A DNA stretch of 64,000 bases from an uncultured Acidobacteriota bacterium (GTDB taxonomy: Bacteria > Acidobacteriota > Vicinamibacteria > Vicinamibacterales > SCN-69-37). Every line of letters begins with the position of its first letter. The first letter of the stretch is position 1. Shown piece by piece: positions 2,083-48,574 of this stretch. The notes under the pieces were generated by a model. That model ran no database searches, was not told the DNA's origin, and saw nothing but the letters and a program-made list of their open reading frames with translations. The stretch spans positions 210,202-274,201 of the forward strand of contig CAWFLT010000003.1 of assembly GCA_963816795.1 (NCBI GenBank), read 5' to 3'. Position numbers and translations under genes: made by a program.

Positions 2083-3955
2083 ATGCGACGGCGACTGAGC
2101 GTGCTGGTTCCGGCACTTCTCGGCGTGGCGGTCACCGCCTGGACCGCCGCGGCGATGCAGCGGCGCGCGGTCGACGATGCCGCGCTGAGGAACGCGCCGA
2201 AGAACGCCAATGAATGGCTGACGGTCGGGCGTGACTATGCGGAACAACGCTATAGCCCGCTGACCCAGATTACGGCCGCGAACGTCAACCGGCTGGGCCT
2301 GGCCTGGTCCTACGAAGTCGGCGACGGAGGCGGTCCGCAGCAAGCGACGCCGCTCATGGCCAACGGCGTCCTCTACGGCATCACGAACTGGAGCATCGTC
2401 TTCGCGGTCGACGCCCGGACCGGCAAGGAGCTCTGGCGTTACGACCCGAAGGTGGATCGCTCGATCGCCGGGTTCGGAACGAGCCGGCTCTGCTGCGGCG
2501 TCAACAGCCGCGGTGTCGCGTTGTACGAAGGCAAGGTGATCGTGCCGGTGCTCGATGGCCGGCTCCAGGCGCTCGACACGGCCACGGGGAAGCTGCTCTG
2601 GTCGGTCATGGCGGTCCCGGCCGATTCCGTGTCGTACTCGATCACCATGGCGCCGCGAGTCGCGCGAGGCAAGATCTTCATCGGCAACGCCGGCGGTGAG
2701 TTTCCCCCGTACCGCGGCTATCTGTCGGCGTTCGACGTCAACACCGGCCGCGAGATCTGGCGCTTCTACACGACGCCCGGAGATCCATCCCAACCGTTCG
2801 AGAACGACGCGATGGCCAGGGCTGCGAAGACGTGGACAGGCGAATGGTGGAAGCTCGGCGGTGGCGGATCGATCTGGGATGGGATGGCGTACGACCCCGA
2901 CGCCAACCTGGTCTACGTCGGCACCGGGAACGGCACGCCGTGGTCGCAGGACGTCCGGCAGGGGAAGGCCACCGAGCATCTCGACAATCTGTATATCGCA
3001 TCGATCCTTGCGATCGATGCCGACACTGGCCGGTTGAAGTGGCACTTCCAGTGTACGCCGGCGGATCAATGGGACTTCGACGCCGTGCAGCACCTGATGC
3101 TCGCCGACCTGCGGATTGGCGGGCGGGCGCGCAAGGTGATCTTGCAGGCCAACAAGAACGGCTACTTCTATGTGATCGATCGGATCTCCGGCGAGTTCCT
3201 CTCCGGCGCGCCGGTCGCACCGGTGAGCTGGGCGCGCGGCCTCGATCCGAAGAGGCCGGCCGATCGTCAACGCCGAGGCGCACTACACCGCCGAGCAAGG
3301 GGTGACCATCTCGCCGCTCCAGGCGCACAACACCGCGCAGATGGCCTTCAATCCGGCGACGGGATTGGTCTACGTGCCGCTCGCCTCGGCGTCGAGCTTC
3401 TCGTTTACCGGCACCAACCATTTCGAAATCACCCCGGGGGCGCAAGCGTGGGGGCTGCGCGGCCGCGGCGACACCGGGCCGAGGCCGCCGCTCGCCGTGC
3501 CGCCGGCCTACGGTCCCGATCGCGGGCTGGCGCGCGGAAACACCGGCATCCTCTCGGCCTGGGATCCGGTGACGCAACAGGAGCGCTGGTACACCGCCGG
3601 TGGAGGACAGAGCGGCGGCGGCGCGCTGTCGACCGCGTCCAATCTCGTCTTCCAAGTCACGCCGCAGGGCCGGCTGTTGGCCTATACAGCGGACAAGGGA
3701 GAGAAGCTGCTCGACATCAGCAGCGGCCAGACCACGGGCATGGGGCCGCCGATGACGTATCTGCTCGACGGCAAGCAGTACATCGCCTTCATGGGCGGCC
3801 GCGGGATCCCGCCGGCGGGTAGCCGTGGCCTGCCTCCGCCCGCCGAGCCGACAACGGGCGCTGCCCCGCCCCTTCCTTCCCCGCCGCCGGCGAGCGCGCA
3901 GGTCTTGCCGCGGATGTACGTGTACACGCTCGACTCGCCGTTCGATAGCCGCTAG
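2083..3955 (+). CDS. PQQ-dependent alcohol (methanol/ethanol family) dehydrogenase; frame disrupted near 3252
   Basis: Signal peptide, vicinal Cys pair (SRLCCGVNSRG) and propeller repeats (ATPLMANGVLYG, DARTGKELWRY, DTATGKLLWS). The N-terminal 390 aa sit in ORF 2083.. and the remainder in ORF 3302..3955. The join ...GLDPK/GRPIVNAEAHYTAEQGVTISPLQ needs a 1-nt correction. Confidence 0.9.
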
Positions 3956-4045
3956 AGCCGTTTTCAGTTGGTGTAGCCGCCGGGCCCTCCGGGTGCCGTG
4001 GCGGCCACGATATTTCGTGACATCGACCAGGCGGAGCCGCTGCCG

Positions 4046-4708
4046 CTACCGATCGCCGCGAACGGGCGTGATGTGCAGCACAGACGCGACGCCGATCAGG
4101 TCCGCGATCGACTCCGCTTCGAGCTTTTCGAAGATGCTGTGGCGGTGAGCCTTGATCGTGCGCTCCTTGGTGCCGAGGTCGAACGCCACCTGCTTGTTCA
4201 GCTGACCGCTGATGAGATGGGCGAACACCTCCCGCTCGCGAGGTGTCAGCCGCTCGAATCTCGCCTGAACCTCCCGCGCATGCGCCCGGGCCGCCCGCTC
4301 GCAGGCGTCGCGGGCAATCGCGTGGCCAACGGCGGTGAGTAGTCGTTCACCAGGCACGGGCTTCGTCAGGAAGTCGACGGCGCCCGCCTTGATCGCCCGG
4401 ACGCTCATCGGGATGTCGCCATGGCCAGTCACAAAGACCACGGGCAGCACATCCACTGCCCTCGCCAACGTCTCATGGATCTCGAGGCCGTTGGCGTCGG
4501 GGAGTTGCACGTCGAGGAGGACGCACCCCGGCTGGCCGATCGGCATCCCGGCGAGAAACTCCGCCGCCGACGCGTAGCTCCTGACCGCGTATCCCGCCGC
4601 GCTCAACAGCCTGGTCGTCGCGCGCCTGGTGTCGTCATCGTCCTCGACGATGTGCACCAGGGGCTCGGCCGGCAGTGGCGGAATGGGGACGGGCCTGGTC
4701 CTGATCAC
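4046..4708 (-). CDS. FixJ/NarL (LuxR-type HTH) response regulator
   Basis: Receiver domain (VHIVEDDDD..., LLDVQLPDANG, FLTKP) plus a LuxR HTH (LTPREREVFAHLISGQLNKQVAFDLGTKERTIKAHRHSIFEKL). The GTG start overlaps the upstream stop (GTGA, 4705-4708). Confidence 0.9.
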   Translation of the reverse strand: MIRTRPVPIPPLPAEPLVHIVEDDDDTRRATTRLLSAAGYAVRSYASAAEFLAGMPIGQPGCVLLDVQLPDANGLEIHETLARAVDVLPVVFVTGHGDIPMSVRAIKAGAVDFLTKPVPGERLLTAVGHAIARDACERAARAHAREVQARFERLTPREREVFAHLISGQLNKQVAFDLGTKERTIKAHRHSIFEKLEAESIADLIGVASVLHITPVRGDR

Positions 4709-6327
4709 GACGGCGGCCGCGGCGGGTCTGCCGCCTCCTGACCCTTTTTGGGGACGGTGAGAGACATCGTGTGAGGGCGGAATGCGATCTGCGTGCCAGC
4801 GGCCTCGACCGCCGTCGTCACCTCGAAGAGCAGTTGTTGCTGGATCTCGAGAAATTGGTCCAGATCGCTCGCGAAGACGTACGCGACGACCTCGACCTCG
4901 AACGAGAACTCCGCCAGGCGGACAAACCGCACGCGCACCGATTTGCGGTCAACTGAGGGATGAGCCTCGAGCATGCCTCGGATGCCCTCGACCACGGCGC
5001 GCAGTTGTGCGGTCGTCGTCTCCGGGCGAATGCCGACGACGGGGTGGAACCAGAACTTGTCGCGCACGGAGAGCGTCTCGAGGCTGACACTCGCGACCTG
5101 GCTGTTCGGGACGCTCACGAGGGTGCGATCGGGCGTCCGAATGCGGGTCGAGCGCAGGCCGATGTGCTCGACGGTGCCGACCACATTTCCCATCTTCAGG
5201 ACATCGCCGGTCCGGACGGCCTGGTCGAAGATGAGCGAGGCGCCGGCAATCATGTTCTCGAGCGTCTTTTGCGCCGCGAGCGCCACAGCAATCCCCCCGA
5301 CGCCCAGTCCGGCCAGTGCCGGCGTGAGATTCAATCCGAAGTGGCGAAGCGTGATCAACACGCCGACGAGGACCACCAGGAAATCGAGCATTCTGCGAAG
5401 CACTCGCACCAGGGTCGCGGCGGCCGGCTGGTTCGAGCGAGGGAAACGACGCCGGATGTAGAGCTCGATCTCTCCGTTGATGAGAACCAGGAGCCAGACG
5501 ACCCCGATGACCGTCAGGAGGCTCGCCAGTTGAGACCAGATCTGCCGGATCAGGAACGAGAGCGGCAGGCTGGCCAGAAACCAGCGGATCGCGAACGCCA
5601 GGAAGAGTATCCGGATGGGAACGGGCAGCAGGTCGCGGGCGAACAGGTCGGAGTACCTCGCGAACCCGCGCCAGAGCGGACGAAGGAGCGGCGTCAGGAT
5701 CTTGTTCAGCAGCAGCGTGAGCAGGTAGAAGAGCGGAAGCCCGAGCAGAGCCGCCAGCAACTCGAACACCCGAATTCCGCCCACGCGCGTGCTGGTCAGG
5801 AATCGGGGAAGGTACCCGGCCCATCCAATCGTCACTTCCTCGTACAAGGCGGGGACCGAGCCCAGCGTCGCCTGAGAAAACAGCCAGACTGGCCCGCTCC
5901 TCCCGCTCGAGATACGCGCGACGATCACGTCGACATCACCGCGAGGACTGGCGATGGTTCCCACGATCTCGTGATCGAGCTTCAGCGGGTTCGAGCGCGA
6001 GCCTTCGGGCGCGTCGCTGATCTGCGAGATCCGGGCTGGGAGGCGCGCATCGAGCACGACGAACAACTGGTGAACCAGCTCGTCGGTGTCCCGGCCGCTC
6101 ACCCTGGCATCGAGGTACTGACGCGCGATTTCTGCCTCACCTCTGCGCGCGGCAGTCAGGAATCCTGTGACCGTTCCTCGCGGCGTGTCTCGACCGAGCG
6201 CGTCCTTGGGAACCTGAACTTGTGGTTCAGCTTGGGAAGAAGTCGCCTGCGCCAGCGCGTCAACTGGCCAGACGAGTGCCAGCACGCAGAGGCCGACGGC
6301 CCGCCACGCGCACCACCCCATCGTCAT
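4705..6327 (-). CDS. MscS-family mechanosensitive ion channel
   Basis: MscS core GVGGIAVALAAQKTLENMIAGASLIFDQAVRTGDVLKMGNVVGTVEHIGLRSTRIRTPDRTLVSVPNSQV. N-terminal signal-like MTMGWCAWRAVGLCVLALVWPVDALAQ. The ORF is open up to 6435, but that start would overlap the upstream gene, so I prefer the 6327 start. Confidence 0.85.
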   Translation of the reverse strand: MTMGWCAWRAVGLCVLALVWPVDALAQATSSQAEPQVQVPKDALGRDTPRGTVTGFLTAARRGEAEIARQYLDARVSGRDTDELVHQLFVVLDARLPARISQISDAPEGSRSNPLKLDHEIVGTIASPRGDVDVIVARISSGRSGPVWLFSQATLGSVPALYEEVTIGWAGYLPRFLTSTRVGGIRVFELLAALLGLPLFYLLTLLLNKILTPLLRPLWRGFARYSDLFARDLLPVPIRILFLAFAIRWFLASLPLSFLIRQIWSQLASLLTVIGVVWLLVLINGEIELYIRRRFPRSNQPAAATLVRVLRRMLDFLVVLVGVLITLRHFGLNLTPALAGLGVGGIAVALAAQKTLENMIAGASLIFDQAVRTGDVLKMGNVVGTVEHIGLRSTRIRTPDRTLVSVPNSQVASVSLETLSVRDKFWFHPVVGIRPETTTAQLRAVVEGIRGMLEAHPSVDRKSVRVRFVRLAEFSFEVEVVAYVFASDLDQFLEIQQQLLFEVTTAVEAAGTQIAFRPHTMSLTVPKKGQEAADPPRPPS

Positions 6328-6379: not shown

Positions 6380-7267
6380 TCAGATGCTGAGGCGTCCCTG
6401 CATGTCTGCGGTGATGTTCGCGGTGTAATTGGCAAATTCCGTGATTGCGTAGTTGCCTGACGGCTGTCGACTTTGCGCTGCGAACATCGCCCGATTGAAC
6501 TGCGTCACGATGGTATCGGCCGTAGTTAACCGGGCGTCGGCGAGAATGTCGAACCGCCTGTCGCCCGCCTGCAGATTGTCGACGGCCTCATCGAACCCGA
6601 CGTTTGCGTTGCTGCGTATCACTGAAGGATTCCCCTTCGACCACGCGATGTCGATGTCGTGGTTGCAGTGCCACTTGAATCCCTTGATCGGCTGGTGCCG
6701 ACCATCCGATCGCTCCACGACGAAGTAGGCGAGGAAGTCGCACTGGGATCGATAGGCCAGCAGGAAGTTCAATCGATCACGCCCGGCGTTACGCCGCTGC
6801 AACCGCAGCCGCCCGGCGGGCTGATCGGGCATCTCGACCGTAAAAGGCGTACCGTTGGGCGCGATCTTGCGAGGCAGGTAGAAGGGTGCCCACGGGGACT
6901 GCAGGCTGTCATTGGGGGAACAGTCCAGGAGCACTTGAAAGTTGAGTCCTGTCGTCGTCTCTTCGATGCAGCCGTCGCTATCCTTGAGGCCGGCGTAGAA
7001 GGCCGAGTGGAATTTGAAGGACGCGACTTGCTTCATGCCGATCACGACGTTGTTGCCGCGGATCACGCCCGTCGCCCTGGCACCCATGGCCGTCTGGCCG
7101 ACCGTGCGGGCGTTCAGATTCGTCCCGCTCGAGTATCGGAGGGATCCCTTGATGTCGGGAAACAGTTCATCCGGAATCAACAGGGAGGCACTGCCGTTGC
7201 CCCCTGGAAAAATCGGCGCCACAGTGAGCGACTCGAGTCGACTGCCGCCGCCGAGGTCGGTCGCCAT
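6380..7267 (-). CDS. hypothetical protein (295 aa), no family recognised
   Basis: Uninterrupted ORF with visibly lower G+C than its neighbours. No signal peptide and no motif I recognise. Its start lies 2 nt after the stop of the PG-binding gene. Confidence 0.6.
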   Translation of the reverse strand: MATDLGGGSRLESLTVAPIFPGGNGSASLLIPDELFPDIKGSLRYSSGTNLNARTVGQTAMGARATGVIRGNNVVIGMKQVASFKFHSAFYAGLKDSDGCIEETTTGLNFQVLLDCSPNDSLQSPWAPFYLPRKIAPNGTPFTVEMPDQPAGRLRLQRRNAGRDRLNFLLAYRSQCDFLAYFVVERSDGRHQPIKGFKWHCNHDIDIAWSKGNPSVIRSNANVGFDEAVDNLQAGDRRFDILADARLTTADTIVTQFNRAMFAAQSRQPSGNYAITEFANYTANITADMQGRLSI

Positions 7268-7269
7268 GA

Positions 7270-7740
7270 CTAGAGATAGACGGAGCGCTTCTGACTCGCC
7301 GGCGCCGCCAGGTCGAACTGGTTGAGCAGCGCCTCGCGGCCAGGATCCGGCGATTCGAGCCCCGGGTTCTGTTCGATGATCTGTTCGAGCATCTCGAGCG
7401 TGCCAGGGCCGACGAAGCCGTCGACCTTGAGGCCGTTCGCCTGCTGGAATTCTTTGACGACCTTTTCCGTCTCGCCGCCGAACACTCCGTCCGCACCCTT
7501 GCTGGACAGGGACTTGGGAAGCTTGAATCCAATGGACGCGAGAAGATCCTGCACCTGGGCCACGCCAGATCCCTTCGACCCGAGCGAAAGCGGCACTGGG
7601 CCGGTGACTTTCTGGAGTTGAGGATCATTGCCGAGTCGTCGAGTGCGCACCGGACCTCCCTCGCTACAGCTCATCGCGCTGGCTACTATCGTCAACGAGG
7701 GACAGCGACGCGCAGGCGCGCGGACCGCCGTCTGATTCAC
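7270..7740 (-). CDS. peptidoglycan-binding (PG_binding_1-like) domain protein
   Basis: GSGVAQVQDLLASIGFKLPKSLSSKGADGVFGGETEKVVKEFQQANGLKVDGFVGPGTLEMLEQI matches the PG_binding_1 repeat pattern. A GTG at 7740 overlaps the cytochrome stop (GTGA), and an internal ATG start is also possible. Confidence 0.7.
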   Translation of the reverse strand: MNQTAVRAPARRCPSLTIVASAMSCSEGGPVRTRRLGNDPQLQKVTGPVPLSLGSKGSGVAQVQDLLASIGFKLPKSLSSKGADGVFGGETEKVVKEFQQANGLKVDGFVGPGTLEMLEQIIEQNPGLESPDPGREALLNQFDLAAPASQKRSVYL

Positions 7741-9172
7741 CGCCGCGCTGGGGGCGGGCTGACCTCTGGGGCAGGAACGGGCGGACTGGCGAGCAAACGA
7801 CCGGCGGGTGTGGGCGGCGCCTCGATCTCCTTGTGGCAGTACTCGCAGTCCGCGTTAATCGTGGTGCCGTCTTTTGCCGTGAGCGATCCGTCGTGGCAGC
7901 GGACGCACCCGAACGACGTGGTGTGCCCGAGGTTGTCGGGATAGGTACCGAACGTGACTTTCATGGTGGGAAACACGTTTCGGCGGTAGATCGTCCTGCA
8001 GCGTGCTCACCGCCCCGGTGACCTGGGCATCCACGGCGCGGCCGCGTGATGTGTAGAACTTCCGCAACTCCTCGTCGATGACGCGCGCGCCGTCTTCCGT
8101 GGTCGGGTGACTCGCCTGCAGCAGGCGGACGGCTTCACGCCGGACGAACGGCAGCCCGCGGTCGATGCGTCCCGCGGCAATCGCCGCATCCACTGCCTGC
8201 TCGGCGGCCGGCGAGATCCGATGAGCCGGGACGTTGTGGCAGTCGATACAGTCCATCGTCCGCCAGGTGCCCTTCGCGAGCTCCTCGGGCGTGGTGTCCG
8301 GGGCCGTGTACTCGCGGACCCGGCCCTGCGCATCCGTGTACTTGACGAACCGAATGGTCTGGCGTTCGGTGTCCGTGTGGAGGAATTCGATGCGCACGCG
8401 CGGATCGGCGTGCCAATGGATGGCGCGGCCGCTCGGCGTCGGCGCGCCCGGACCGCCCAGGTACATCTGCAGGATCGTCCTCGTCTCCGTGTTCGTCTCG
8501 TCGTCCGCGTAGGCCCGATAGACACGAACGACGTCGCCGGACGCCTTGCCCGACCAATGACACGCCCCGCAAATCTCCTGCGCGGGACGCATATCGGCAA
8601 CCCCTGGGATCGGCCGCGGATAGTGGCCCGTGACCACGTGATAGAGCTGCCGCAGGCCGTTCATCTTGTACTTGACGAATGCGCGGCCCCCTTCGCCGAT
8701 GTGGCATTGCACGCAGGTGACCTGCTGAGTGCGAAGCGCCCTGCCACGCTGTGAACTGCGGGTGCATCGGCGTGTGGCACGTCTGACCGCAGAACGCCGG
8801 GGATTCCATCGAGTGGAGCCCGCCATATCCCGCAACCAGCACAATCGCGACATTGACGGCCGTCAGCGCGACGACCATCAGGACCCGGCGACGGGTCACC
8901 GGTGACCTGAAATCGAAGACGGGCCACTCCCGTACGGCCTCGGGGTGCCGCAGCTGCCGGCGGCGCTCGAGCCACATGCCGAACGGCATCAGCAGCAGGC
9001 CGAGTACGAAGAGCGCCGGCACCGCGACGAAGACGACGAGCGCGGCGTACGGGTTATCGAAGAGGCCGAGCAGGAGCCCGGCGAGCAGGGCGAGAAACGC
9101 CACGGCGCTCACCGTGGTCAACACGGCGCCCGCGATTGAGATCGGATGTCGGGCCAGATTGCGGCTCGCCAC
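7737..9172 (-). CDS. membrane-anchored hexahaem c-type cytochrome, NapC/NirT(CymA)-like; 2 frame disruptions (~8730, ~7992)
   Basis: Pieces from ORFs 8135..9172, 7855..8853 and 7737..7976 join colinearly. There are two N-terminal TM helices. CXXCH-type motifs: CGQTCH, CVQCH, CGACH, CIDCH, CVRCH, CEYCH. Confidence 0.8.
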
Positions 9173-28220: not shown

Positions 28221-30225
<2,005 letters not shown>

Positions 30226-30243
<18 letters not shown>

Positions 30244-30418
30244 TCTGCAATGGCAGAGACATCGGCAATGGATAATCTCGATTGATAATCGGCAATCGCA
30301 AATCTTCCGATGGAAAATCGGCAATGGGCAATGGGCATCTGACAGATTGCCGATTGCCAATCGGGATTGTCGATTGCCGATGTTTCCATCGCAGATTACC
30401 ATTGCCGATTGTCGATTG
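30226..30418. repeat. AT-rich long imperfect palindrome built from GRCAAT / ATTGYC motifs
   Basis: The left arm carries 6 GGCAAT/GACAAT copies and the right arm 6 ATTGCC/ATTGTC copies. The arm ends are exact complements (CAATCGACAATC at 30227-30238 vs GATTGTCGATTG at 30407-30418). It sits between the convergent atpC and the STAS-like gene. Confidence 0.8.
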
Positions 30419-30433
30419 AGCCGAGCCCGCGCT

Positions 30434-30793
30434 CTACATCGCCAGCCAGGCGCGTGCGGCGGCCGCAGCGTTCTCGGTGAAGAACTCGACCGGAGCCTTC
30501 CGCAGGTCCGCAATCGCAAACATCATCGTCTCGCTCCGCCATCGTTCAGGTCCGACGATCGCGATGCGCTCGATGGACTCGCCGTGCGCAATGTAGAACG
30601 ACAAGTCGCTCCAATTGTCCTGCGCGTCCCATCCGGTGAATCCGTCCAGAAGGATGAGTAGCCGGACGGGTCCGAATTGGCTGATCTGCCCGGCCATCGA
30701 CTTGACGCACTGATCGAACTCGGCTTTCCGCAGGATGCCGCGAATCTCCAGACGGTAATGATTCGCGGTTTCATGATGAATGGCGATCGGCAT
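30434..30793 (-). CDS. STAS/SpoIIAA-like (DUF3478-type) protein
   Basis: 119 aa. GPVRLLILLDGFTGWDAQDNWSDLSFYIAHGESIERIAIVGPERW...EFFTENAAAAARAWL fits the DUF3478 pattern. Confidence 0.7.
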   Translation of the reverse strand: MPIAIHHETANHYRLEIRGILRKAEFDQCVKSMAGQISQFGPVRLLILLDGFTGWDAQDNWSDLSFYIAHGESIERIAIVGPERWRSETMMFAIADLRKAPVEFFTENAAAAARAWLAM

Positions 30794-30866: not shown

Positions 30867-32462
30867 CTACGACCGCTTGGGTCGCTTGAGTCCGAGCTTC
30901 GCCAGCCGGGTCTCGAGGGTCGTCGGCCTGAGTCCGAGCCGGTCGGCCGCGCCGCCCGCTCCGCGGATGCGCCAGCCGGTGCTCTCCAGCACGCCGCGGA
31001 TGTGCTCCTTCTCGACGTCGACCAGCTTGAGGCTGCGCCTCGCCGCCGCCGCGGTGGACGTCGGCAGGGTCAGGCTCAGCCGAGGTCCTGTGGCGACGAT
31101 CATCGCGCGCTCGACGACATTCCGGAGCTCGCGAATGTTGCCGGGCCACGGGTATTGCTGCAGCGTCTCCATGTTGTCGCGTGAGATGGCGTCGATCCGC
31201 TTGCCGAACGCCTTCGAGAACTCGTCAACGAACCGCCAGACCAGGAGGGGAATGTCTTCGGCGCGGTCCCGCAGCGGCGGCACCTTGATGGGAAACACGT
31301 TGAGCCGATAGAACAAGTCCTCCCGAAACGTGCCGTCGGCGATCCGCTGTTCGAGATCGCGGTGAGTGGCGGCGATGATGCGCGTGTCAACGCGAATCGC
31401 TCTCGGACTCCCCAATCGCTCGATCTGCCGTTCCTCGAGCACCCGCAGCAACTTGATCTGCACGTCCTGAGGGAGCTCGCCGATCTCGTCGAGGAAGATC
31501 GTCGAGTGGTCGGCCAGCTCGAAGCGGCCGATCTGACGCGCGAGCGCGCCGGTAAAGGCGCCCTTCTCGCGGCCGTACAGCTCGCTCTCCATCAGCGTGA
31601 CCGGAATCGCTGAACAGTTCACGCGCACCATTGCCCGGCTGTGACGGGCGCTGAGCTCGTGGATCTGCGTCGCGAACAGTTCCTTGCCGGTGCCGGTCTC
31701 GCCGAGCAGGAGCACCGTCGAATCAGTCGCCGCCACCTGCCGGACCTGCTCCAGCACGCGCCGGACCGCCAGACTCTGGCCGACGATGATGCCGGTACCG
31801 AGTCGCTCCTCGGTCTCGCGCCGGAGGTACACGTTTTCGGCCTGCAACCGATCGCGCAGGCGCTCGACGTCGGCCAGCATGGCCCGGAGCGCGGCCTCAT
31901 TGTCGCGCCGTGTCAGGAAATTGCCGAACACGGTCGCAATGACGCGCAGGCGCTGGATTTCCTCCGGCAGCCAGAGGCGCTCGCGACGCTCGGTATCGAA
32001 ACCGATGGCCCCGACCACTCGTCCGGCGACCGACAGCGGAATCGTGATGTGCGAACGGGTGCCGCACACGCTGTAGTTCGCGTGGTCGACGGGGTTGCGG
32101 ATCTCGTCGACGCTGGAAAAACACACGACGCCCCCGGCGAGGGCGGTTTCGAACGTCCACGGGAACAGGTCCCGTACCGGTGCGGGCATCGGCGAAATCC
32201 CGTCCGCCGCCCAGCCGACGGGATCGGTCAGGACGCCATCGGGCTGGACCCGGTAGAACGTGGCGCGGTCCAGGTCGAGCGCCTCCCCAATCCGCCCCAA
32301 CGCGTCACGAATCGCTTCGTCGCCCTGGTCGGCCGGCAGGTTGATGAACCGCATCGACAGCTCGGCGACCAGCCGGTCGAACTCGATCTCCTGCCCGTGG
32401 GGCACTCGGCCGTTGAGTTCGGCAATCTGCACGCGCTCGGTGGGCAGTTCTTCAATGAACAT
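30867..32462 (-). CDS. sigma-54-dependent transcriptional activator with N-terminal GAF-like sensor
   Basis: AAA+ core LLLGETGTGKELFA, ESELYGREKGAFTGA, FLDEIGELP, RIIAATHRDL. C-terminal Fis-type HTH. The N-terminal ~190 aa are GAF-like. Confidence 0.9.
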   Translation of the reverse strand: MFIEELPTERVQIAELNGRVPHGQEIEFDRLVAELSMRFINLPADQGDEAIRDALGRIGEALDLDRATFYRVQPDGVLTDPVGWAADGISPMPAPVRDLFPWTFETALAGGVVCFSSVDEIRNPVDHANYSVCGTRSHITIPLSVAGRVVGAIGFDTERRERLWLPEEIQRLRVIATVFGNFLTRRDNEAALRAMLADVERLRDRLQAENVYLRRETEERLGTGIIVGQSLAVRRVLEQVRQVAATDSTVLLLGETGTGKELFATQIHELSARHSRAMVRVNCSAIPVTLMESELYGREKGAFTGALARQIGRFELADHSTIFLDEIGELPQDVQIKLLRVLEERQIERLGSPRAIRVDTRIIAATHRDLEQRIADGTFREDLFYRLNVFPIKVPPLRDRAEDIPLLVWRFVDEFSKAFGKRIDAISRDNMETLQQYPWPGNIRELRNVVERAMIVATGPRLSLTLPTSTAAAARRSLKLVDVEKEHIRGVLESTGWRIRGAGGAADRLGLRPTTLETRLAKLGLKRPKRS

Positions 32463-32673: not shown

Positions 32674-33915
32674 ATGAAACAACCTAGCTTCCGAACGGGA
32701 CGACTCGCCCGCGGCGCCGCGTTCAAGAGCATCGCGTTCGCCTGTGCGACGTTCCTGATGCCATACGACGCCGTGGCACGGACGCAGGCGGCCCAGCAGC
32801 CGTCCGCCGCCGCCGATCCGGCCGCGGCCAAGGTCCCCAACGATCAATTGGACTCGCTGGTCGCGCCGATCGCGCTCTATCCGGATCCGCTCTTGAGCCA
32901 GACGCTCGTGGCCTCGACGTATCCGCTCGAGATCATCCAGCTGCAACAATGGCTCGCGAAAAACCCGGGCCTCAAGGACAAGGCGCTGACCGATGCCGCG
33001 CTGAAGCAGCCTTGGGATCCGAGCATTCAGGCCATGGCGGTCCTGCCCGACGTCGTCAAGCGGCTGGCTGACGACATCCAGTGGACCACCGACCTCGGCA
33101 ACGCCTTCCTCGCACAGCAGAGCGATGTGATGGACGCGGTCCAGCGGATGCGTAAGAAAGCGCAGGGCACCGGCGCGCTCGCCTCGAACGAACAGCAGAA
33201 GGTGGAAACGAAGGTCGTCGAAACCAAGACGGTGATCGTCATAGAACAGGCCAATCCGCAGGTCGTCTACGTCCCTGCGTACAGCCCGACGATCGTCTAC
33301 GGTCCGCCGATCTATCCTTACCCGCCGATCTACTACCCGCCGTACCCGGTGGGGGCGGTGGCGATCTCGTTTGGTGTCGGCCTGGCCGTTGGCGCGGCGT
33401 GGGGCGGCGGCGGCTGGGGGTGGGGCTGCGGGTGGGGCGGCAACGATATCGACATCAACGTGAACAACAACTACGTCCGCCACAACAACATCAACAACGT
33501 CAACAACATCAATCGCGGCAATTCCGGCAAGTGGCAGCATAACGCGCAGCACCGTGGCGGCGCGCCTTATGCGAACCAGGCGACTGCAGATCGGTTCGGC
33601 GGGACGGCCCGTGGCGACTCGCTGTCGTCCCGGCAATCGGGCGCGCGGACGCAAACGCAGAGCGGCGCGGCCCGGCAGCCGCAGGCGAGTGCCGCCAGTC
33701 GATCCCCGAGTACGAGCTCAGCTGGCGCCGGCCGCACGGACACGGGTGGCGGAGACAGGGTCGGCAACCGCGAGGTCCCGAAGAGCAGCCCGTCGTCGTC
33801 ACGGAGCAGCAGTGCCATGGGCGGCAGTTCCGGCGGCGCCAGCCGCGCCTCCGCCAGCAGCAGCCGCGGCGGGAGCAGTATGGGCGCCTCCCGCGGCGGC
33901 GGCGGACGAAGGTGA
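32674..33915 (+). CDS. DUF3300 domain-containing secreted protein
   Basis: LDSLVAPIALYPDPLLSQTLVASTYPLEIIQLQQW...PWDPSIQAMAVLPDV is the DUF3300 signature. The tail is low-complexity and rich in G/W, N and S. Confidence 0.85.
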   Translation: MKQPSFRTGRLARGAAFKSIAFACATFLMPYDAVARTQAAQQPSAAADPAAAKVPNDQLDSLVAPIALYPDPLLSQTLVASTYPLEIIQLQQWLAKNPGLKDKALTDAALKQPWDPSIQAMAVLPDVVKRLADDIQWTTDLGNAFLAQQSDVMDAVQRMRKKAQGTGALASNEQQKVETKVVETKTVIVIEQANPQVVYVPAYSPTIVYGPPIYPYPPIYYPPYPVGAVAISFGVGLAVGAAWGGGGWGWGCGWGGNDIDINVNNNYVRHNNINNVNNINRGNSGKWQHNAQHRGGAPYANQATADRFGGTARGDSLSSRQSGARTQTQSGAARQPQASAASRSPSTSSAGAGRTDTGGGDRVGNREVPKSSPSSSRSSSAMGGSSGGASRASASSSRGGSSMGASRGGGGRR

Positions 33916-43529: not shown

Positions 43530-44747
43530 TTGGACCTCCATAGCGGGACGCCGTTCTGGCCGGTGCGGGACGGGCTTCCCGCAACCTACCCGCCGCTGCG
43601 ACAAGACGCGTCGGCCGACGTCGCCGTCATCGGCGCCGGCATCACCGGCGCGCTCCTCGCGCATGCGCTGTCGCAGGACGGCGCCGACGTCATCGTGATC
43701 GATCGCGATGATGTCGTGTCGGGCAGTTCGGCGGCGACGAGCGGCCATCTGCTGTACGACACGGACACGTCACTCGCGGAACTGACGCAGGCCTTCGGCG
43801 CCGATGCAGCCGCGCGTGTCTATCAGTTGGGTCTTGGCGCAGTGGACACGATCGAGATGCTCGTCCGATCGCTCGATCACTCCTGCGGATTCGCACGACG
43901 TCCCAGCTTGTATCTGGCGTCCCGCCGCCGGCATGTCGCGGCGCTCCGAGAGGAATTCGAGCGACGGCTTGCGCTCGGTCTCGAGGTCACGCTCCTCGAA
44001 GCCCGGGACGTCGCGGCCCACTACAGTTTCAGCGCGCCAGCGGCGATCTACAGTCACGGCACGGGCGAGATCGATTGCTATCGACTTCGCTCACCAGCTG
44101 CTCGCGGCCGCGACGCGTCAGGTGCCCGCATCCACGATCGGACCGAGGTGACCCAGATCGAGCCGCAAGGCGAGCGGCATCCGATCTGACGCTTGACGAG
44201 GGCGGCCATACGCTGCGGGCGAAGCAAGTGGTGTGTGCGACTGGCTACGACGTGAGCGTGAAGCTGCGCCGCTCGCCCGGACGACTGGCGAGCACCTGGG
44301 CCTTTGTGTCCGAGCCGATTGACGACTTTCCCGGCTGGCCGGAACGATGCCTGATTTGGGAAACGGCGCGCCCGTACCTGTATGTCAGAACCACCGAAGA
44401 CGGCCGGGTGTTGGCGGGAGGCGAAGACGAGCCGTATCCCTACCGCCATCGGCGGCGGACGACGTTTGCGGCCAAGACCGACACGCCTGATTGGCCGGGT
44501 TCGCGACATGTTTCCTGACCTGCGCATCGAGCCGGCCTACTGTTGGGCAGGGACGTTCGCAACGACTGACGACGGCCTGCCGTTCATCGGCCAGGTGCCT
44601 GAACAGCCGGGCATCTGGTTCGCCCTCGGATACGGAGGCAACGGCATCACGTTCAGCGTCATTGCTGCAGCCATCCTGCGAGATCTGCTCCGCGGCCGCG
44701 ACAACGCCGACGCGAGGCTGTTCTCATTCGAGCGGCCCAGTCGCTGA
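43530..44747 (+). pseudogene. FAD-dependent (DAO-family) oxidoreductase, at least 4 frame disruptions (~44075, ~44125, ~44185, ~44480)
   Basis: LDLHSGTPFWP...VAVIGAGITGALLAHAL...IDRDDVVSGSSAATSG. It continues through three other frames (AIDFAHQLLAAATRQ; ...VVCATGYDV...RPYLYVRTTEDGRVLAGGED; ...DGLPFIGQVPEQPGIWFALGYGGNGITF). Confidence 0.75.
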
Positions 44748-44780
44748 TGGCTGGCACGGTTCTGGCTATAACTGGCGGGC

Positions 44781-45895
44781 ATGCGTGTTCGCTACGCGAG
44801 TGACGACCGGCCCGGCATCTCTCGAACGAAGTCCGGCAGCAGTTTTGTCTACAGGACTGCCAACGGCCGCATCGTGCGCGATCCCGCGATGCTGGCGCGC
44901 ATTCCGTCGGCTGGCGGTGCCTCCGGCCTGGACCAACGTCTGGCTCGCCCGCGATCCGTCCGGCCACGTTCAAGCGACCGGACGCGATGCGCGCGGCCGC
45001 AAGCAATATCGGTATCACGCCGCGTGGACGGCGCAGCGCGATCGCGCCAAGTACGATCACCTGATTGATTTCGCGCGGCTGCTTCCGGCGGTCAGACGCC
45101 GGGTGGCGCGAGATCTCGACGCACCGTCACTCTCGCGACGCTCGCGTGCTCGCTACCGTCATCGCGCTCCTGGAGCGCACGCGCATTCGCGTCGGCAACG
45201 ACGAGTACGCGCGCGACAACGGATCGTATGGCCTGACGACGATGCAGAACCGGCACGTGCAGGTCCGCAGTGGGCGACTCGCGTTCCGGTTCAAAGGCAA
45301 GTCAGGCATCCACCACGCGGTCACGCTCGAAGATCCCAGACTGGCGCGCGAAGTGCGCCGCTGCCAGGAACTGCCCGGCCAGACGCTGTTCGAATACCGC
45401 GATGCCGGCAGCCGGTTGCGCCGCGTCGGTTCCGCGGACGTGAACGCCTATCTGGCGGCAGTCGCCGGATCCGAGGTCACGGCGAAAGACTTTCGCACGT
45501 GGTGGGGCACGGTCTCGGCCTGCAGCCTGCTGCGCGAAGCCCCGGCCGCGGCGACGGCCACCGCCCGAAAGCGGAATCTCCTCGCCGCACTCGACGATGT
45601 CGCGAAGCAGCTCGGCAACACCCGCGCCATCTGCCGCAAGTGCTACGTGCACCCGTCGGTCCTCGACGCCTACGCGCGCGGCGTGTCGCTCGGCCCTCGC
45701 CCGCACGACGCGAGACGCGTGGCTGGATTGAGCGCCGACGAACGCACGACGCTGTCGCTGCTCGAAGCGATGCGTCGAACAGCGGTACCCGTCGCGCGCG
45801 CCCCGGAACCGGTCAAGACGGGTCAGGACGAGCGGGCGCGCCGCGTAGATTCGCCTACCTGCCGCGGCCGCCCTTGGCGGCCCTGGCAATCATGA
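44781..45895 (+). CDS. DNA topoisomerase IB; 2 frame disruptions (~44900, ~45130)
   Basis: Fragments in three frames join: MRVRYASDDRPGISR...; VPPAWTNVWLARDPSGHVQATGRDARGRKQYRYH; RIRVGNDEYARDNGSYGLTT...FRFKGKSG...TAKDFRTWWGT...AICRKCYVHP (catalytic Tyr). Confidence 0.85.
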
Positions 45896-46289
45896 CCTCC
45901 GTTGATTTGACGATCGCGATCGCATCGTCGCCGCGCCGCAACTTCAGGGCGCGGACGGCGTCGGCCGTGATGACGGCGGTCAGCGAGTAGCGGCCGACTC
46001 GGAGGCGGACCTGCGCGAGCAGTCCATCGATTCGCACCTCTTCGACAAACCCCGGCAACCGATTTCGCGCGCTCAGTTCGCTGAGCGACTCCTCCGCGTC
46101 CGGGCTGGTCCGGCGCCGCGCCTGGGGCTGCTGCCGGGCGAGTAACCGTTCGATCTCACTTTCAGACACCCGATGGTGGCCGCCTTCGGTCCGGGTGGTC
46201 CTGACGTGACCACTATGCACCCAGCGTTTGAACGTGGAATAGCCGACGCCAAGCTGCATCGCTGCCGCTCTCACGGTTAGAAGGCCCAT
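45855..46289 (-). CDS. MerR/excisionase-type HTH + TOBE (Mop) domain regulator
   Basis: LTVRAAAMQLGVGYSTFKRWVHSGHVRTTRTEGGHHRV then SARNRLPGFVEEVRIDGLLAQVRLRVG..LTAVITADAVRALKLRRGDDAIAIVKSTEVMI. Confidence 0.8.
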   Translation of the reverse strand: MGLLTVRAAAMQLGVGYSTFKRWVHSGHVRTTRTEGGHHRVSESEIERLLARQQPQARRRTSPDAEESLSELSARNRLPGFVEEVRIDGLLAQVRLRVGRYSLTAVITADAVRALKLRRGDDAIAIVKSTEVMIARAAKGGRGR

Positions 46290-46404
46290 GCCGCGGATGC
46301 TAGCAGCAGAACCGTGCGACGTGCGAGGTGCGTGGCGGGCGTGCCGTATACTTCGAGGCGCGCGCCGCGGCGGTACTCGCGGCCCGGTCACAGCAGCCAA
46401 CTCC

Positions 46405-46911
46405 ATGGAATATCTGATCCTGATCTTTCTGCACGTCCTCTTCGGCATCTTCTGGGCTGGCGGAGCCATCGTCGCTGGATTCTTCATTCTTCCAGCCGTC
46501 ATCGACGCCGGACCGGCGGGTGGCGCCGTGATGGCCGGAGTGGTGCGGCGGCGCCTCCCGGTGATCATCAGCCTCGCCGCCGTGATTGTGCTCCTCACCG
46601 GGGTTCGGCTGTACATGCTGCGGTTCACGCCGGAATGGTTTCTGACGAAAGAGGGACTCGTGCTTTCCCTTGGCGCGCTGCTGGCGATCGGCGCGTTTGT
46701 GATCGGCCTGTTCGTGCAGAAGCCCGTGGCCGAGCGTCTGGGCGCGCTGGCCGGCCAACTGGCCGCCGCCGGATCGGCGCCAACGGCCGCGCAGGCCGCT
46801 GAACTTCAGGCGCTCCGAGCGCGACTGCGCCGAGTGGCCAACCTGACAGCGTGGCACCTGCTCGTCGCGTCCATTCTCATGGCCGGCCACCGCCTCGCGG
46901 CCGTGCTCTGA
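46405..46911 (+). CDS. integral membrane protein (4 TM), function unknown
   Basis: MEYLILIFLHVLFGIFWAGGAIVAGFFILPAV... with four hydrophobic spans. Confidence 0.6.
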   Translation: MEYLILIFLHVLFGIFWAGGAIVAGFFILPAVIDAGPAGGAVMAGVVRRRLPVIISLAAVIVLLTGVRLYMLRFTPEWFLTKEGLVLSLGALLAIGAFVIGLFVQKPVAERLGALAGQLAAAGSAPTAAQAAELQALRARLRRVANLTAWHLLVASILMAGHRLAAVL

Positions 46912-46928
46912 CCGGACGGGGGGACGGC

Positions 46929-47190
46929 GTGGAGCGTGGAAAGCGCTTGAGGTACGGCGTGGAAAGCGCTTGAAGTTCGGTGTGGAGGGCGCTTGAAGTA
47001 CGGCGTGGAAAGCGCTTGAAGTTCGGGGTGGAAAGCGCCTGAAGTTCGGGGTGAAAAGCGCTTGAAGTTCGGGGTGAAAAGCGCCTCGAAGTTCGGGGTG
47101 GAAAGCGCCTTGAAGTTCGGCGTGGAATAGCGCTCGAGGTTCGGGGTGGAGAGCCGCTTGAAGTACGGGTGGAGCGCCCTGAAGACCACG
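46929..47190. repeat. tandem array A: about 11 copies of a 23-24-bp unit GTGGAAAGCGCTTGAAGTTCGGG
   Basis: Unit starts read at 46936, 46959, 46982, 47005, 47028, 47051, 47074, 47098, 47122 and 47146, plus degenerate end copies. The unit contains the palindrome AAGCGCTT. Confidence 0.9.
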
Positions 47191-47445
47191 ACGGGCCGCG
47201 GCCGATTGAGGTGCCCGCCCGATTGGCGTCGGACCGCGCCGCGAATGATTCGGCATCAGCGCGCGGAGCTTCACAGGCTCGACGCCAAGGTCATCGCGTG
47301 GAACGCGCGCGACCTGACGGTCCGCGAGATTCACGGCCCTTTTGGCGGAGACTTCCACGGTCGACGCGTCGCCGGTTCGACATCGGCCCGACGTCGGTCG
47401 GGCCGAAGGGTGCCCGGCAGGCGCGGCCCTCGACCGTCGTGCCCT
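47160..47445 (+). mobile_element. fragment of an IS256/Mutator-family transposase gene (about 90 codons, frameshifted)
   Basis: The translation ...PPDWRRTAPRMIRHQRAELHRLDAKVIAWNARDLTVREIHG... resembles the conserved ...PRDR..FEP.LI.KHQRR..GLD.KIISLYARGMTVREIQ.H segment of mutator-type transposases. This is from memory and has not been searched. Confidence 0.5.
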
Positions 47446-47694
47446 TCTACGGCGCACTTCGCGGCCCTTCACGTCCATCCCGCGCCCTTCGCACCGCACC
47501 TCCGCGCCCTTCACCCCGACTTCGCGCCCTTCACGCCGGACTTCCCGTGCCTTTCACGCCGCACTTCCCGCGCCCTTCACACCGGACTTCCCGCGCCCTT
47601 CACGCCGTACTCCGCGCCCTTCACCCGAACTTCCCGCGCCCTTCACGCCCGCACTTCCAGCGCCCTTCACGCCGTCACTTCCCGCGCCCTTCAC
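47439..47694. repeat. tandem array B: about 12 copies of a 20-24-bp unit GCCGGACTTCCCGCGCCCTTCAC, inverted relative to array A
   Basis: Units end in CCCTTCAC at 47472, 47514, 47534, 47580, 47603, 47624, 47646, 47670 and 47694 (variants at 47494 and 47557). The reverse complement of unit A matches unit B at about 16-18 of 23 positions. Confidence 0.9.
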
Positions 47695-47704
47695 CCGTAA
47701 CGTC

Positions 47705-48574
47705 TTACTGCTTGACGGCGAGCCGCGTCGGCGCGAGCAACGTCACGCCTTTCCGCTTGGTCGCGATGCTGATGCGCTCGTTCGGCTTCACGCCGTCGGC
47801 CAGCGTGTATGTCAGCGTGTACTGATGCATCAGGTGGTCGACGATCCTGGACGTCGCCGCCTGCAGCGCCGTTGAGCTCGTCGCCACCGACGGCCTCGGT
47901 CCGGCCGCCGGTGAACTTCGGGCCATCGCCGAGGACACGGCCAATCGGCGTCGTTGGCAGTGAGAGCAGATCGACAATCGCGCCGCTCGCCACGACCTGC
48001 GCCAGCACCTGGTCGAGGTTGGAGCTCTCTGAGACGTCGCCGCCAATCGTGAGCACGAGGATGACCGGGCGTGCCGACCTGCGGCGAACGTGCTCCTTGG
48101 CGGCTTCGGAAATTCCCGTCGACCAATTGCTCCGGCTCCGGCAGCAGCTTGCCGCGCTGCCCGAGCCGGCCCAGCGCCGTCTTGAGCAGTGCCACGTCCT
48201 GGGTGTAGTCCTGGATGACGAGCGCCTGCGGGCTCATCTGGCGGATGGAAAACTCCGCCCGCGCGATCGTGACCTTGCAGCACTTGCGCCACCACCGGCT
48301 GAAATCCGCCCGTCCCGCCGTCGTCGACGATGATCGCGATCTGCATCGGCGTGGTGTCGGGCGTCAGGCTCGAAACCGTCGCGTCTTTCCCGCCATCCTT
48401 GACTGTCAGATCGGCGGCGGTGAGATCCGCCACGATCCCGCCCTTCGCATCGATCGCCGCGAGATGCACCGTTCTCGTCGTGGCCGCCAGCGGTGCTTCC
48501 GCGTCGAGGTTCGCGGGGCCGGCCGACAGCACCGCGAAGGCGAGCATGAGCACCAGTCCAATCCGTTTCATCAC
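47705..48574 (-). CDS. VWA-domain (VWFA-related, Acidobacterial-type) secreted protein; 3 frame disruptions (~48290, ~48110, ~47870)
   Basis: Signal MMKRIGLVLMLAFAVLSAGPA. The parts ...IAIIVDDGGTGG..., ...ALVIQDYTQDVALLKTALGRLGQRG..., ...VLTIGGDVSESSNLDQVLAQVVASGAIVDLL... and ...QYTLTYTLADGVKPNERISIATKRKGVTLLAP... lie in alternating frames. Confidence 0.7.
   Translation of the reverse strand: MMKRIGLVLMLAFAVLSAGPANLDAEAPLAATTRTVHLAAIDAKGGIVADLTAADLTVKDGGKDATVSSLTPDTTPMQIAIIVDDGGTGGFQPVVAQVLQGHDRAGGVFHPPDEPAGARHPGLHPGRGTAQDGAGPARAARQAAAGAGAIGRREFPKPPRSTFAAGRHARSSSCSRLAATSQRAPTSTRCWRRSWRAARLSICSHCQRRRLAVSSAMARSSPAAGPRPSVATSSTALQAATSRIVDHLMHQYTLTYTLADGVKPNERISIATKRKGVTLLAPTRLAVKQ

Follow-up and report, generated by a model that had tools for sequence, protein, structure and literature searches.

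Opposed arrays of a 23-bp intergenic repeat around an IS256-family remnant in an uncultured Acidobacteriota bacterium

Canonical insertion sequences (ISs) of the IS256 family measure about 1.3-1.5 kb, end in inverted repeats of ~25-30 bp, produce target duplications of 8-9 bp and encode a PF00872 transposase. A derivative of such an element lies in a 64,000-nucleotide stretch of DNA from an uncultured Acidobacteriota bacterium, referred to here in its entirety as the window (GenBank assembly GCA_963816795.1, contig CAWFLT010000003.1, positions 210,202 to 274,201). Among the homologs found, one of 37% identity is labelled Vicinamibacterales, a tentative taxonomic hint for this uncultured high-GC soil bacterium. 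Between two convergent genes of the window, a 785-bp element consists of two opposed arrays of tandem ~23-bp units that enclose a frameshifted fragment of an IS256-family transposase gene. The favored explanation, with a probability of roughly 0.65, is a repeat cluster, similar in location and use to repetitive extragenic palindromic (REP) sequences and bacterial interspersed mosaic elements (BIMEs), that offered one IS256 clade a safe haven for insertion, received an insertion at its center and retained that insertion as it decayed. Intact relatives of the IS share the canonical size, inverted repeats, duplications and PF00872 transposase, and the center of the window element derives from an element of this type. 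Unlike a canonical IS256 member, the window copy lacks both ends, and its clade from soil shows a strong site preference that is absent in proteobacterial relatives of ~70% identity.

The association of ISs with short dispersed repeats has been described before. IS elements of five families associate with REP sequences, including the IS256-family ISRm5 in 5/7 of its copies in Sinorhizobium meliloti (PMC1525189). REP/BIME clusters are the targets of IS1397 and ISKpn1 in enterobacterial BIMEs, and of ISPpu9/10, ISRm22 and ISRm5 (Tobes & Pareja 2006, PMC1525189). Like these targets, the arrays described here are built from a short, dispersed, species-specific intergenic repeat, cluster in inverted orientation, lie at gene 3′ ends and are reused by one IS that keeps its own ends. 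They also agree with the description of REP/BIME repeats as intergenic, dispersed units of 20-40 bp that occur in variants. In contrast to REP/BIME repeats, the array unit is not a self-forming stem-loop palindrome, and the 23-bp units are arranged head to tail in arrays of up to ~35 units that form two opposed arms. Insertion appears to take place at the apex between the arms rather than in the loop of a single REP. Moreover, the association with the IS is maintained although the unit sequence varies from lineage to lineage, an indication that structure rather than sequence is recognized.

Two further systems invite comparison. IS1272, a member of the IS1182 family, enters inverted-repeat structures by ‘IR-replacing’ insertion without target duplication (PMC5678879). 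The array-associated IS clade likewise appears to target inverted-repeat (stem-loop) DNA and often lacks a duplication, and IS1272 may offer a parallel for three of its copies (L027, L029 and L030). However, IS1272 belongs to a different family and targets single small inverted repeats instead of arrays, whereas some copies of the present clade have normal duplications. Eukaryotic Foldback/Galileo and Mutator-like elements also combine opposed tandem-repeat arms, a transposase of the Mutator/IS256 superfamily between them and a strong foldback potential. In those transposons the termini are formed by the arms, which are enclosed by the target duplication. Here it is the arms that enclose the duplication, which stands next to short conventional inverted repeats, and arms are also found around a host gene without a transposase. 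The resemblance to Foldback/Galileo is architectural only. Insertion of ISs into REP-type repeats is already known; long opposed arrays of a 23-bp unit, the apparent insertion at their apex and an association that outlasts changes of the unit appear to be undescribed in the literature searchable here.

The arrays and the remnant between them

As the initial annotation of the window stated, the element fills the whole gap between the two convergent stop codons, from the TGA at 46909-46911 to the TAA at 47705-47707. The locus comprises the following features:

46288..46911, + strand: left convergent gene, encoding a membrane protein of 207 aa; from the list of open reading frames (ORFs), with a weak Pfam match to DUF2269 (E 0.0013, under the curated cutoff); stop codon TGA at 46909-46911
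46914..47698, no strand: full insert of 785 bp (both arrays and the IS remnant), delimited by junction alignment against the empty orthologous site
46936..47173, + strand: array A, ~10 tandem units of 23-24 bp, consensus GTGGAAAGCGCTTGAAGTTCGGG; from Tandem Repeats Finder (TRF), repeat families D1/D2 and the unit list
47184..47436, + strand: IS256-family remnant (IS nt 305-568; transposase residues about 89-150, frameshifted); from blastn and tblastn
47441..47699, - strand: array B, ~11 tandem units of 20-24 bp, - strand consensus GTGAAGGGCGCGGGAAGTGCGGC; from TRF, families D3/D4 and the unit list
47705..48574, - strand: right convergent gene, a 289-aa ORF for a VWFA-related protein; from the ORF list and the names of its homologs, which carry the VWFA-related name and PF13519; stop codon TAA, read as tta at 47705-47707

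The two mutually inverted tandem arrays that were first noticed by eye are real, with slightly adjusted coordinates and about 10 and 11 copies. TRF places array A at 46936-47173 (period 23, 10.2 copies, 85% matches, score 314, unit GTGGAAAGCGCTTGAAGTTCGGG), with degenerate edge units extending to about 46925-47190, and array B at 47441-47694 (period 23, 11.4 copies, 81% matches, score 299, unit GCCCTTCACGCCGCACTTCCCGC). The arrays are opposed, with 74% complementarity across arms of 98 nt in register. By hand comparison, the reverse complement of unit B is identical to unit A at 16/23 positions, within the range of about 16-18 given originally. Palindromes inside the units are short only (AAGCGCTT and GAAnTTC in type A, GCGC in type B). 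The arrays were also regarded as non-coding, with which both the period of 23, not a multiple of 3, and the absence of Pfam domains from the ORFs crossing them agree. An Rfam scan of 46000-48500 gave no match at E <= 10. The 23-bp unit occurs nowhere else in the 64-kb window, and dinucleotide shuffles of the window contain no unit match; the arrays make up about 0.8% of the window and <1% of all sequence examined.

Long stop-free ORFs run along the C-rich strand of the arrays (46300-47514 on the - strand; 47146-47700 and 47169-47825 on the + strand). Spurious array-derived proteins of this kind are present in databases (P0205-P0208), and long ORFs called across such arrays are to be treated as spurious in genome annotation.

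The center had been read as a fragment of an IS256/Mutator-type transposase, and DNA homology bears this out. It matches nt 305-568 of an intact 1414-nt IS (L027, positions 217-1630, the reference for IS coordinates throughout) at 76.9% over 268 nt (blastn, E 6e-44), and DGPRPIEVP and LDAKVIAWNARDLTVREIHG are the pieces of the window center that match in tblastn. The remnant lacks the catalytic domain and both IS ends, whose deletion removed the ~25-30-bp terminal inverted repeats; about 80% of the transposase gene is gone and ~60 non-catalytic residues are left. Profile searches of the central translations, raw or stitched, gave no Pfam match. PF00872 (DDE transposase, Mutator/IS256 type) is thus not detected in the window fragment alone, while the transposase of the homologous intact element matches it at E 1.5e-119. 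Judged by its sequence, the window center is a remnant and no functional member of the IS256 family. A frame-stitched central peptide gave weak IS256 matches in tblastn (E 3e-3), which were discounted because its frames had been chosen by hand; the DNA-level homology was used instead.

Empty and occupied states of the locus

Orthologous loci in two relatives, L025 and L026, were located through homologs of the right-hand gene; an ortholog of the left gene was found in both, and the neighbors at the orthologous locus include a 5′-3′ exonuclease gene. L025, at about 84% nucleotide identity, aligns to window positions 48638-47699 and 46913-45841 with ~4 unaligned bases between the two segments. 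It represents an empty site, in which the 785-bp element is missing and the two stop codons lie about 12 bp apart. The filled junctions read TGA-CC-[insert]-GTAACGTC-TTA, and the empty site reads TGA-CC-ATCGAACGAT-TCA. This comparison of filled and empty junctions revealed no direct repeat or target duplication at the outer borders of the arrays.

L026, with flanks 82-91% identical to the window, is occupied. Both arrays are present in similar copy numbers, and the 1.1-kb center holds a frameshifted IS256-family transposase gene that starts abruptly at about residue 89 (DGPVPIEVPRDR), flush with array A. The gene reaches its natural end and is followed by a recognizable right inverted repeat beside array B, so that IS nt 305-1414 are kept, at 94% identity to the L027 element. 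The truncation point at nt 305 is common to the window and L026 and must therefore predate the split of the two genomes. The window copy has evidently lost ~850 nt more since then, including the right end.

The arrays themselves have continued to change. Between the window and L026, array similarity is 0.76 for A and 0.81 for B, whereas A and B resemble each other less (0.66-0.71); since orthologous arrays are more alike than A and B, the divergence of A from B is old. Most units of each array carry changes specific to their lineage, such as AA at position 6-7 in window A against Gt in L026 A, and G at position 7 in window B against T in L026 B. This indicates that homogenization is continuing, and it upholds the earlier impression that each array is homogenized internally. 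The L026 arrays also show a sub-period of 11-12 bp.

Array B of L026 contains a second, unrelated IS at 6565-8097 (DUF772, DDE_Tnp_1 and DDE_Tnp_1_6; 18-bp inverted repeats GAGCCTGTGAATAAATCG / GAGCTTGTGAATGAATCG). Arrays of this type therefore collect more than one kind of IS.

Array-flanked relatives and arrays without an IS

With L026 as the reference, the loci compared were L027-L032, which hold intact or near-intact copies with transposases 83-97% identical to the L026 query, and L033-L042, ten contigs bearing one protein of 80% identity. The intact relatives measure 1411-1538 bp, encode a PF00872 transposase and end in inverted repeats of ~30 bp that start with GAGCCTGTCAGGAATTT (left, GAGCCTGTCAGGAATTTCGTGTGTGGGGC; right, as reverse complement, GGGCGTGTCAGAAATTCTGTGTGTGGGGC). 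In nearly all cases, arrays with a period of 23-25 bp lie just outside these inverted repeats, the left ones in + and the right ones in - orientation. In the group with 94-97% transposase identity, arrays stand outside the inverted repeats of L027, L029 and L030, and of L028 on the left side only; arrays are also found beyond the inverted repeats of L031 and L032 (83-84% identity) and of L033-L042 (80%). Two decayed or partial cases of an array with an IS are visible only as spurious ORFs (P0206, P0207). Excluding the window and L026, 13 of the 14 distinct loci with a copy, a remnant or an end of this IS clade adjoin arrays on at least one side (author's count). Recurring at so many independent loci, the link between arrays and transposase is no coincidence, as had been surmised from the window alone.

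The L028 copy of the IS (3001-4227) lacks its 3′ end and right inverted repeat, with the deletion running into the array. An IS110-family transposase gene (4397-5368) lies immediately downstream of this truncated copy.

The boundaries of the mobile unit are given by target duplications. Exact duplications stand flush with the IS inverted repeats in L031 (TGACTGGC, 8 bp) and in L040 (GAACTGAAC, 9 bp), and in L032 there is a 9/10 match on the palindrome CGAAGGCCTTCG at the inverted-repeat boundaries. With duplications directly at the short inverted repeats and the arrays beyond them, the mobile unit is delimited by its two inverted repeats. The 9 bp duplicated in L040 belong to array-unit sequence, which makes the array there older than the insertion of the IS. 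When the targets of L031, L032 and L040 were rebuilt by removing the IS and one duplicate, the duplication fell at the predicted foldback apex in 3/3. The array unit is also unlike the ends of the IS: local alignment with the inverted repeats, in both orientations and against shuffles, gave z > 2.5 in 3/120 tests and no consistent match. The same alignments rule out the unit as a copy of the IS inverted repeat, whether through inverted-repeat targeting or as amplified solo ends.

The proteobacterial relatives of ~70% identity have the same type of inverted repeat and clean 8-9-bp duplications, and no arrays adjoin them. Target duplications were found in L044 (8 bp) and L046 (9 bp). In L044, a Methylococcus plasmid that served as a control, an unrelated iteron-like array (21-247; 31/54-bp period, CGGTAGGTTTAACACGC...) lies beside a replication gene, about 400 bp from an IS256-family copy.

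Within the array-associated clade, the unit differs by lineage. It reads GTGAAGGGCGC..GA(A/G)GT.CGG in the 94-97% group and TCGTCAAGAACTGCGAAGTTCAGA in L032, and is of a GGTTC type with 11-12/25 bp in L033-L042; period, orientation and a GA(A/G)GT(T/C)C core remain constant. Even close relatives diverge in this respect, as L027 has the unit GCGCAYGAGGTCCGG and L029 the unit GCGCGGGAAGTTCGG, yet their transposases are both ~97% identical to the query and the lengths of the two ISs differ by 3 nt.

L040, L041 and L042, which come from different samples and encode an identical transposase, join one right-arm array sequence to differing IS ends or to a non-array left flank. Such joins suggest that inversion or recombination took place between copies of the IS, or that similar arrays were hit separately.

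Arrays also exist without the IS. A scan of metagenomes with a degenerate unit pattern recovered three more contigs (L013, L018 and L021). L013 is a complete, IS-free foldback (folding z = -9.0) in which about 6 units and about 4 inverted ones enclose a 50-bp center; it is colinear with L029 after removal of the IS, with the central stem-loop motif conserved. L021 has two units only, 3′ of a gene stop, and in L018 the array lies at the contig edge. A search with translated arrays yielded four spurious proteins, too few for statistics: one led to L043, two represent arrays beside IS remnants or ends, and one represents two arrays in direct orientation. In L043, a UPF0102/YraN gene is flanked by an array of ~35 units (3122-3963) and an inverted one of ~15 (4411-4763); IS256 is absent, and the left array shows a 46-bp higher-order repeat in which two unit types alternate. 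The number of units per array across loci thus ranges from 2 to about 35. The unit-pattern scan gave no match in viral contigs, and 12 single matches and 0 arrays in GTDB species-representative genomes. In the window and in L013, L018, L021, L027-L032 and L043, the 23-bp unit is intergenic only, and its variants are lineage-specific. As the unit is unlike the IS inverted repeat and arrays occur free of the IS, the arrays constitute an independent dispersed repeat family. The initial annotation had weighed its mobile-element proposal against a common genome-wide REP unconnected with mobile DNA. The unit is indeed dispersed and intergenic, yet its link to mobile DNA is strong, in the role of a target.

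A stem-loop motif of ~45 bp, GCGAGTCGTCGCGCC-TC.AAGCCCGAG-GCGCGCTACGAGCGC, occurs at or near the foldback centers of the GTGAAGGGCGC unit type (L013, 205-245; L028, 2520-2565 and 3995-4040; L029, 1541-1585). The L029 IS lies at the left edge of the motif, which is absent from the window element. The UPF0102/YraN gene of L043, of a nuclease family, has a frame that is seemingly broken mid-gene.

Interpretation and alternatives

The architecture would be explained by two nested layers. The first would be a lineage-specific intergenic repeat whose arrays of ~23-bp units (core GA[A/G]GT.C .. GTGAAG .. GCGC) settle at gene 3′ ends; placed head to head between convergent genes, two such arrays would form a foldback. 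The second would be an ordinary IS256-family IS (about 1.41 kb; inverted repeats of ~30 bp, duplications of 8-9 bp) that inserted at or near the foldback center in an ancestor. The first 304 nt of the IS would then have been lost, as in L026, and a further ~850 nt in the window genome, leaving a stump of 253 bp, while the arrays would expand, contract and homogenize through slippage or unequal recombination. The direct observations behind this scheme are the stump homology, the common truncation, the empty site, the IS ends and duplications inside arrays, the IS-free arrays and the recurrent association. Going by its distribution, the IS clade appears to pick the apex of inverted arrays actively. 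Given that the unit sequence varies while the geometry is kept and insertions lie at the apex, recognition of structure or symmetry, such as a cruciform or a hairpin tip, is probably likelier than recognition of sequence. Apex insertion would give the IS a harmless residence, as with REP-targeting IS elements.

Several points weigh against this explanation. At the window locus only the empty and the occupied states are seen, and an array-only ancestral state is not. Clearly IS-free arrays number only three (L013, L021 and L043); since contigs from metagenomes end at repeats, these counts may not reflect how many arrays are occupied relative to empty ones. The intact and near-identical copies L027, L029 and L030, as well as several copies among L033-L042, have no target duplication at their inverted repeats, which calls for later recombination between copies or an unusual chemistry of hairpin insertion, beyond simple insertion. 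Selection against insertions elsewhere could add to the observed distribution. The explanation does not cover the arrival of arrays at new loci, and their outer edges are free of target duplications.

It is conceivable, though rather unlikely, that the arrays are functional gene-end elements, acting as an mRNA 3′ stabilizer, a terminator of convergent transcription or a platform for protein or RNA, with their inversion a by-product and the IS a passenger. All single arms seen (L018, L021 and both L043 arrays) and both window arms carry the G-rich sequence on the sense strand of the gene upstream, which is the left gene for array A and the VWFA-related gene for array B. No intrinsic terminator was predicted for either convergent gene at the locus. 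As RNA, the sense strand of array A folds with z = -6.0 and the - strand of array B with z = -4.1 relative to shuffles, and the whole 785-bp element is predicted to form a long foldback as single-stranded DNA (-247 kcal/mol, z = -8.8), in which the pairing is between units or between arms and never within one unit. Comparable roles for REP/BIME repeats have been reported (PMC3733652). However, four of four single arms make weak statistics, and some arms lie upstream of divergent genes (L033, L035/L040). L025 does without the element, array copy number and sequence vary freely, and the consistent apex position of the IS is not accounted for. A gene-end role thus complements the explanation by a targeted repeat cluster and does not replace it; the orientation of the arms suggests that, where genes converge, a foldback may simply arise from the encounter of two gene-end arrays. 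A reading of the element as the source of a hairpin RNA was also considered. On neither strand are the differences between arms A and B biased toward G:U-compatible changes (hand comparison of consensus units), which gives no indication that the arms have been selected to pair as RNA.

The initial annotation took the arrays for a terminal inverted structure. On this account they would serve a composite element derived from IS256 as functional long terminal inverted repeats, each with multiple transposase-binding sites. The window copy would have arisen from it by deletion and, though non-autonomous, would move as a unit of array, center and array. Nearly all examined copies are indeed flanked by arrays in an end-like geometry, on one or both sides; arrays and IS are jointly absent at the L025 empty site; and some support comes from the copies without a duplication at the short inverted repeats and from the small number of IS-free arrays. 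Yet the inverted repeats of the IS and the exact 8- and 9-bp duplications flush with them (L031 and L040) lie inside the arrays, and in L040 the duplicate is itself array sequence. The unit is unlike the IS inverted repeat, the outer array edges show no duplication, and array sequence and copy number vary among loci whose ISs are ~97% identical. Large IS-free arrays surround the UPF0102 gene, and relatives of 70% identity bear the same inverted repeats free of arrays. The arrays are therefore improbable as transposon ends, more so than as gene-end elements, and the proposal of a non-autonomous derivative falls with the lack of an outer-edge duplication, the dissimilar unit and the IS-free arrays of L013, L021 and L043.

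Two related candidates were rejected. The whole 785 bp does not qualify as a miniature inverted-repeat transposable element or other non-autonomous derivative, as its termini are unlike the inverted repeats of the parent IS and no target duplication flanks it. Arrays formed as excision footprints or repeated target duplications were dismissed by reasoning: the same unit family is found at unrelated loci, a period of 23 or 11.5 bp does not fit duplications of 8-9 bp, and opposed arms would not be expected.

The suggestion that the arrays are iteron- or centromere-like protein-binding sites of a plasmid or another replicon has very little in its favor. The 23-bp unit and spacing, the 11-12-bp sub-period in L026 and the short palindromes of the A unit (AAGCGCTT, GAAnTTC) are indeed reminiscent of iterons or parC-type sites. 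However, the element has no adjacent rep or par gene; its neighbors are ordinary genes of chromosomal type (VWFA-related protein, membrane protein, DAO oxidoreductase and topoisomerase IB), the source contig measures 341 kb, the same unit occurs at many unrelated loci, and the element is dispensable in L025. An assembly artefact of collapsed or chimeric repeats is the least credible of all: although the contig is metagenome-derived and tandem arrays that exceed the read length assemble poorly, which leaves the exact copy number uncertain, the independently assembled L026 has both arrays in similar copy numbers with the same junction to the IS remnant, and many other assemblies show the same architecture.

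Other features of the window are recorded here for completeness. Two genes upstream of the element, 44491-45990 encodes a bacterial topoisomerase IB N-terminal domain (PF21338, E 1e-12). A separate, AT-richer cluster at 30261-30418 consists of a 29-bp unit repeated 2.3 times (ATCGGCAATCGAAAATCTTCCGATGGAAA), followed by ~10 GATTGCC/GGCAATC 7-bp motifs in both orientations; it overlaps a listed - strand ORF (29755-30519, a candidate gene) and lies upstream of the end of the ORF 30867-32462. At 33304-33512, short tandem repeats with periods of 18, 12 and 9 are clustered, including CAACAACAT x3.3, possibly as a low-complexity linker within overlapping long ORFs.

A more speculative extension of the targeted repeat cluster treats the arrays and the IS256 clade as a co-evolving pair, in which the transposase or a recruited host factor would recognize the opposed arrays as a structure and would also seed or spread them. 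Doubtful as this is, it would amount, if true, to a bacterial counterpart of Foldback/Galileo or of the partnership between REPs and REP-associated tyrosine transposases, based on a DDE enzyme of the Mutator type. In a weaker form, a DDE transposase may read cruciform apexes, and this would provide a testable system of structure-specific targeting in a very abundant group of soil bacteria. Relatives of the L026 pseudo-protein in metagenomes number at least 7998 at E <= 1e-60 among the 8000 candidates scored. With an IS clade so abundant in soil metagenomes, the rules by which it inserts influence how genomes are organized in a major uncultured lineage from soil, and they also explain assembly breaks at such sites. 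If the choice of target is structural, the clade would offer a simple model for the reading of DNA shape by a Mutator/IS256-superfamily DDE transposase.

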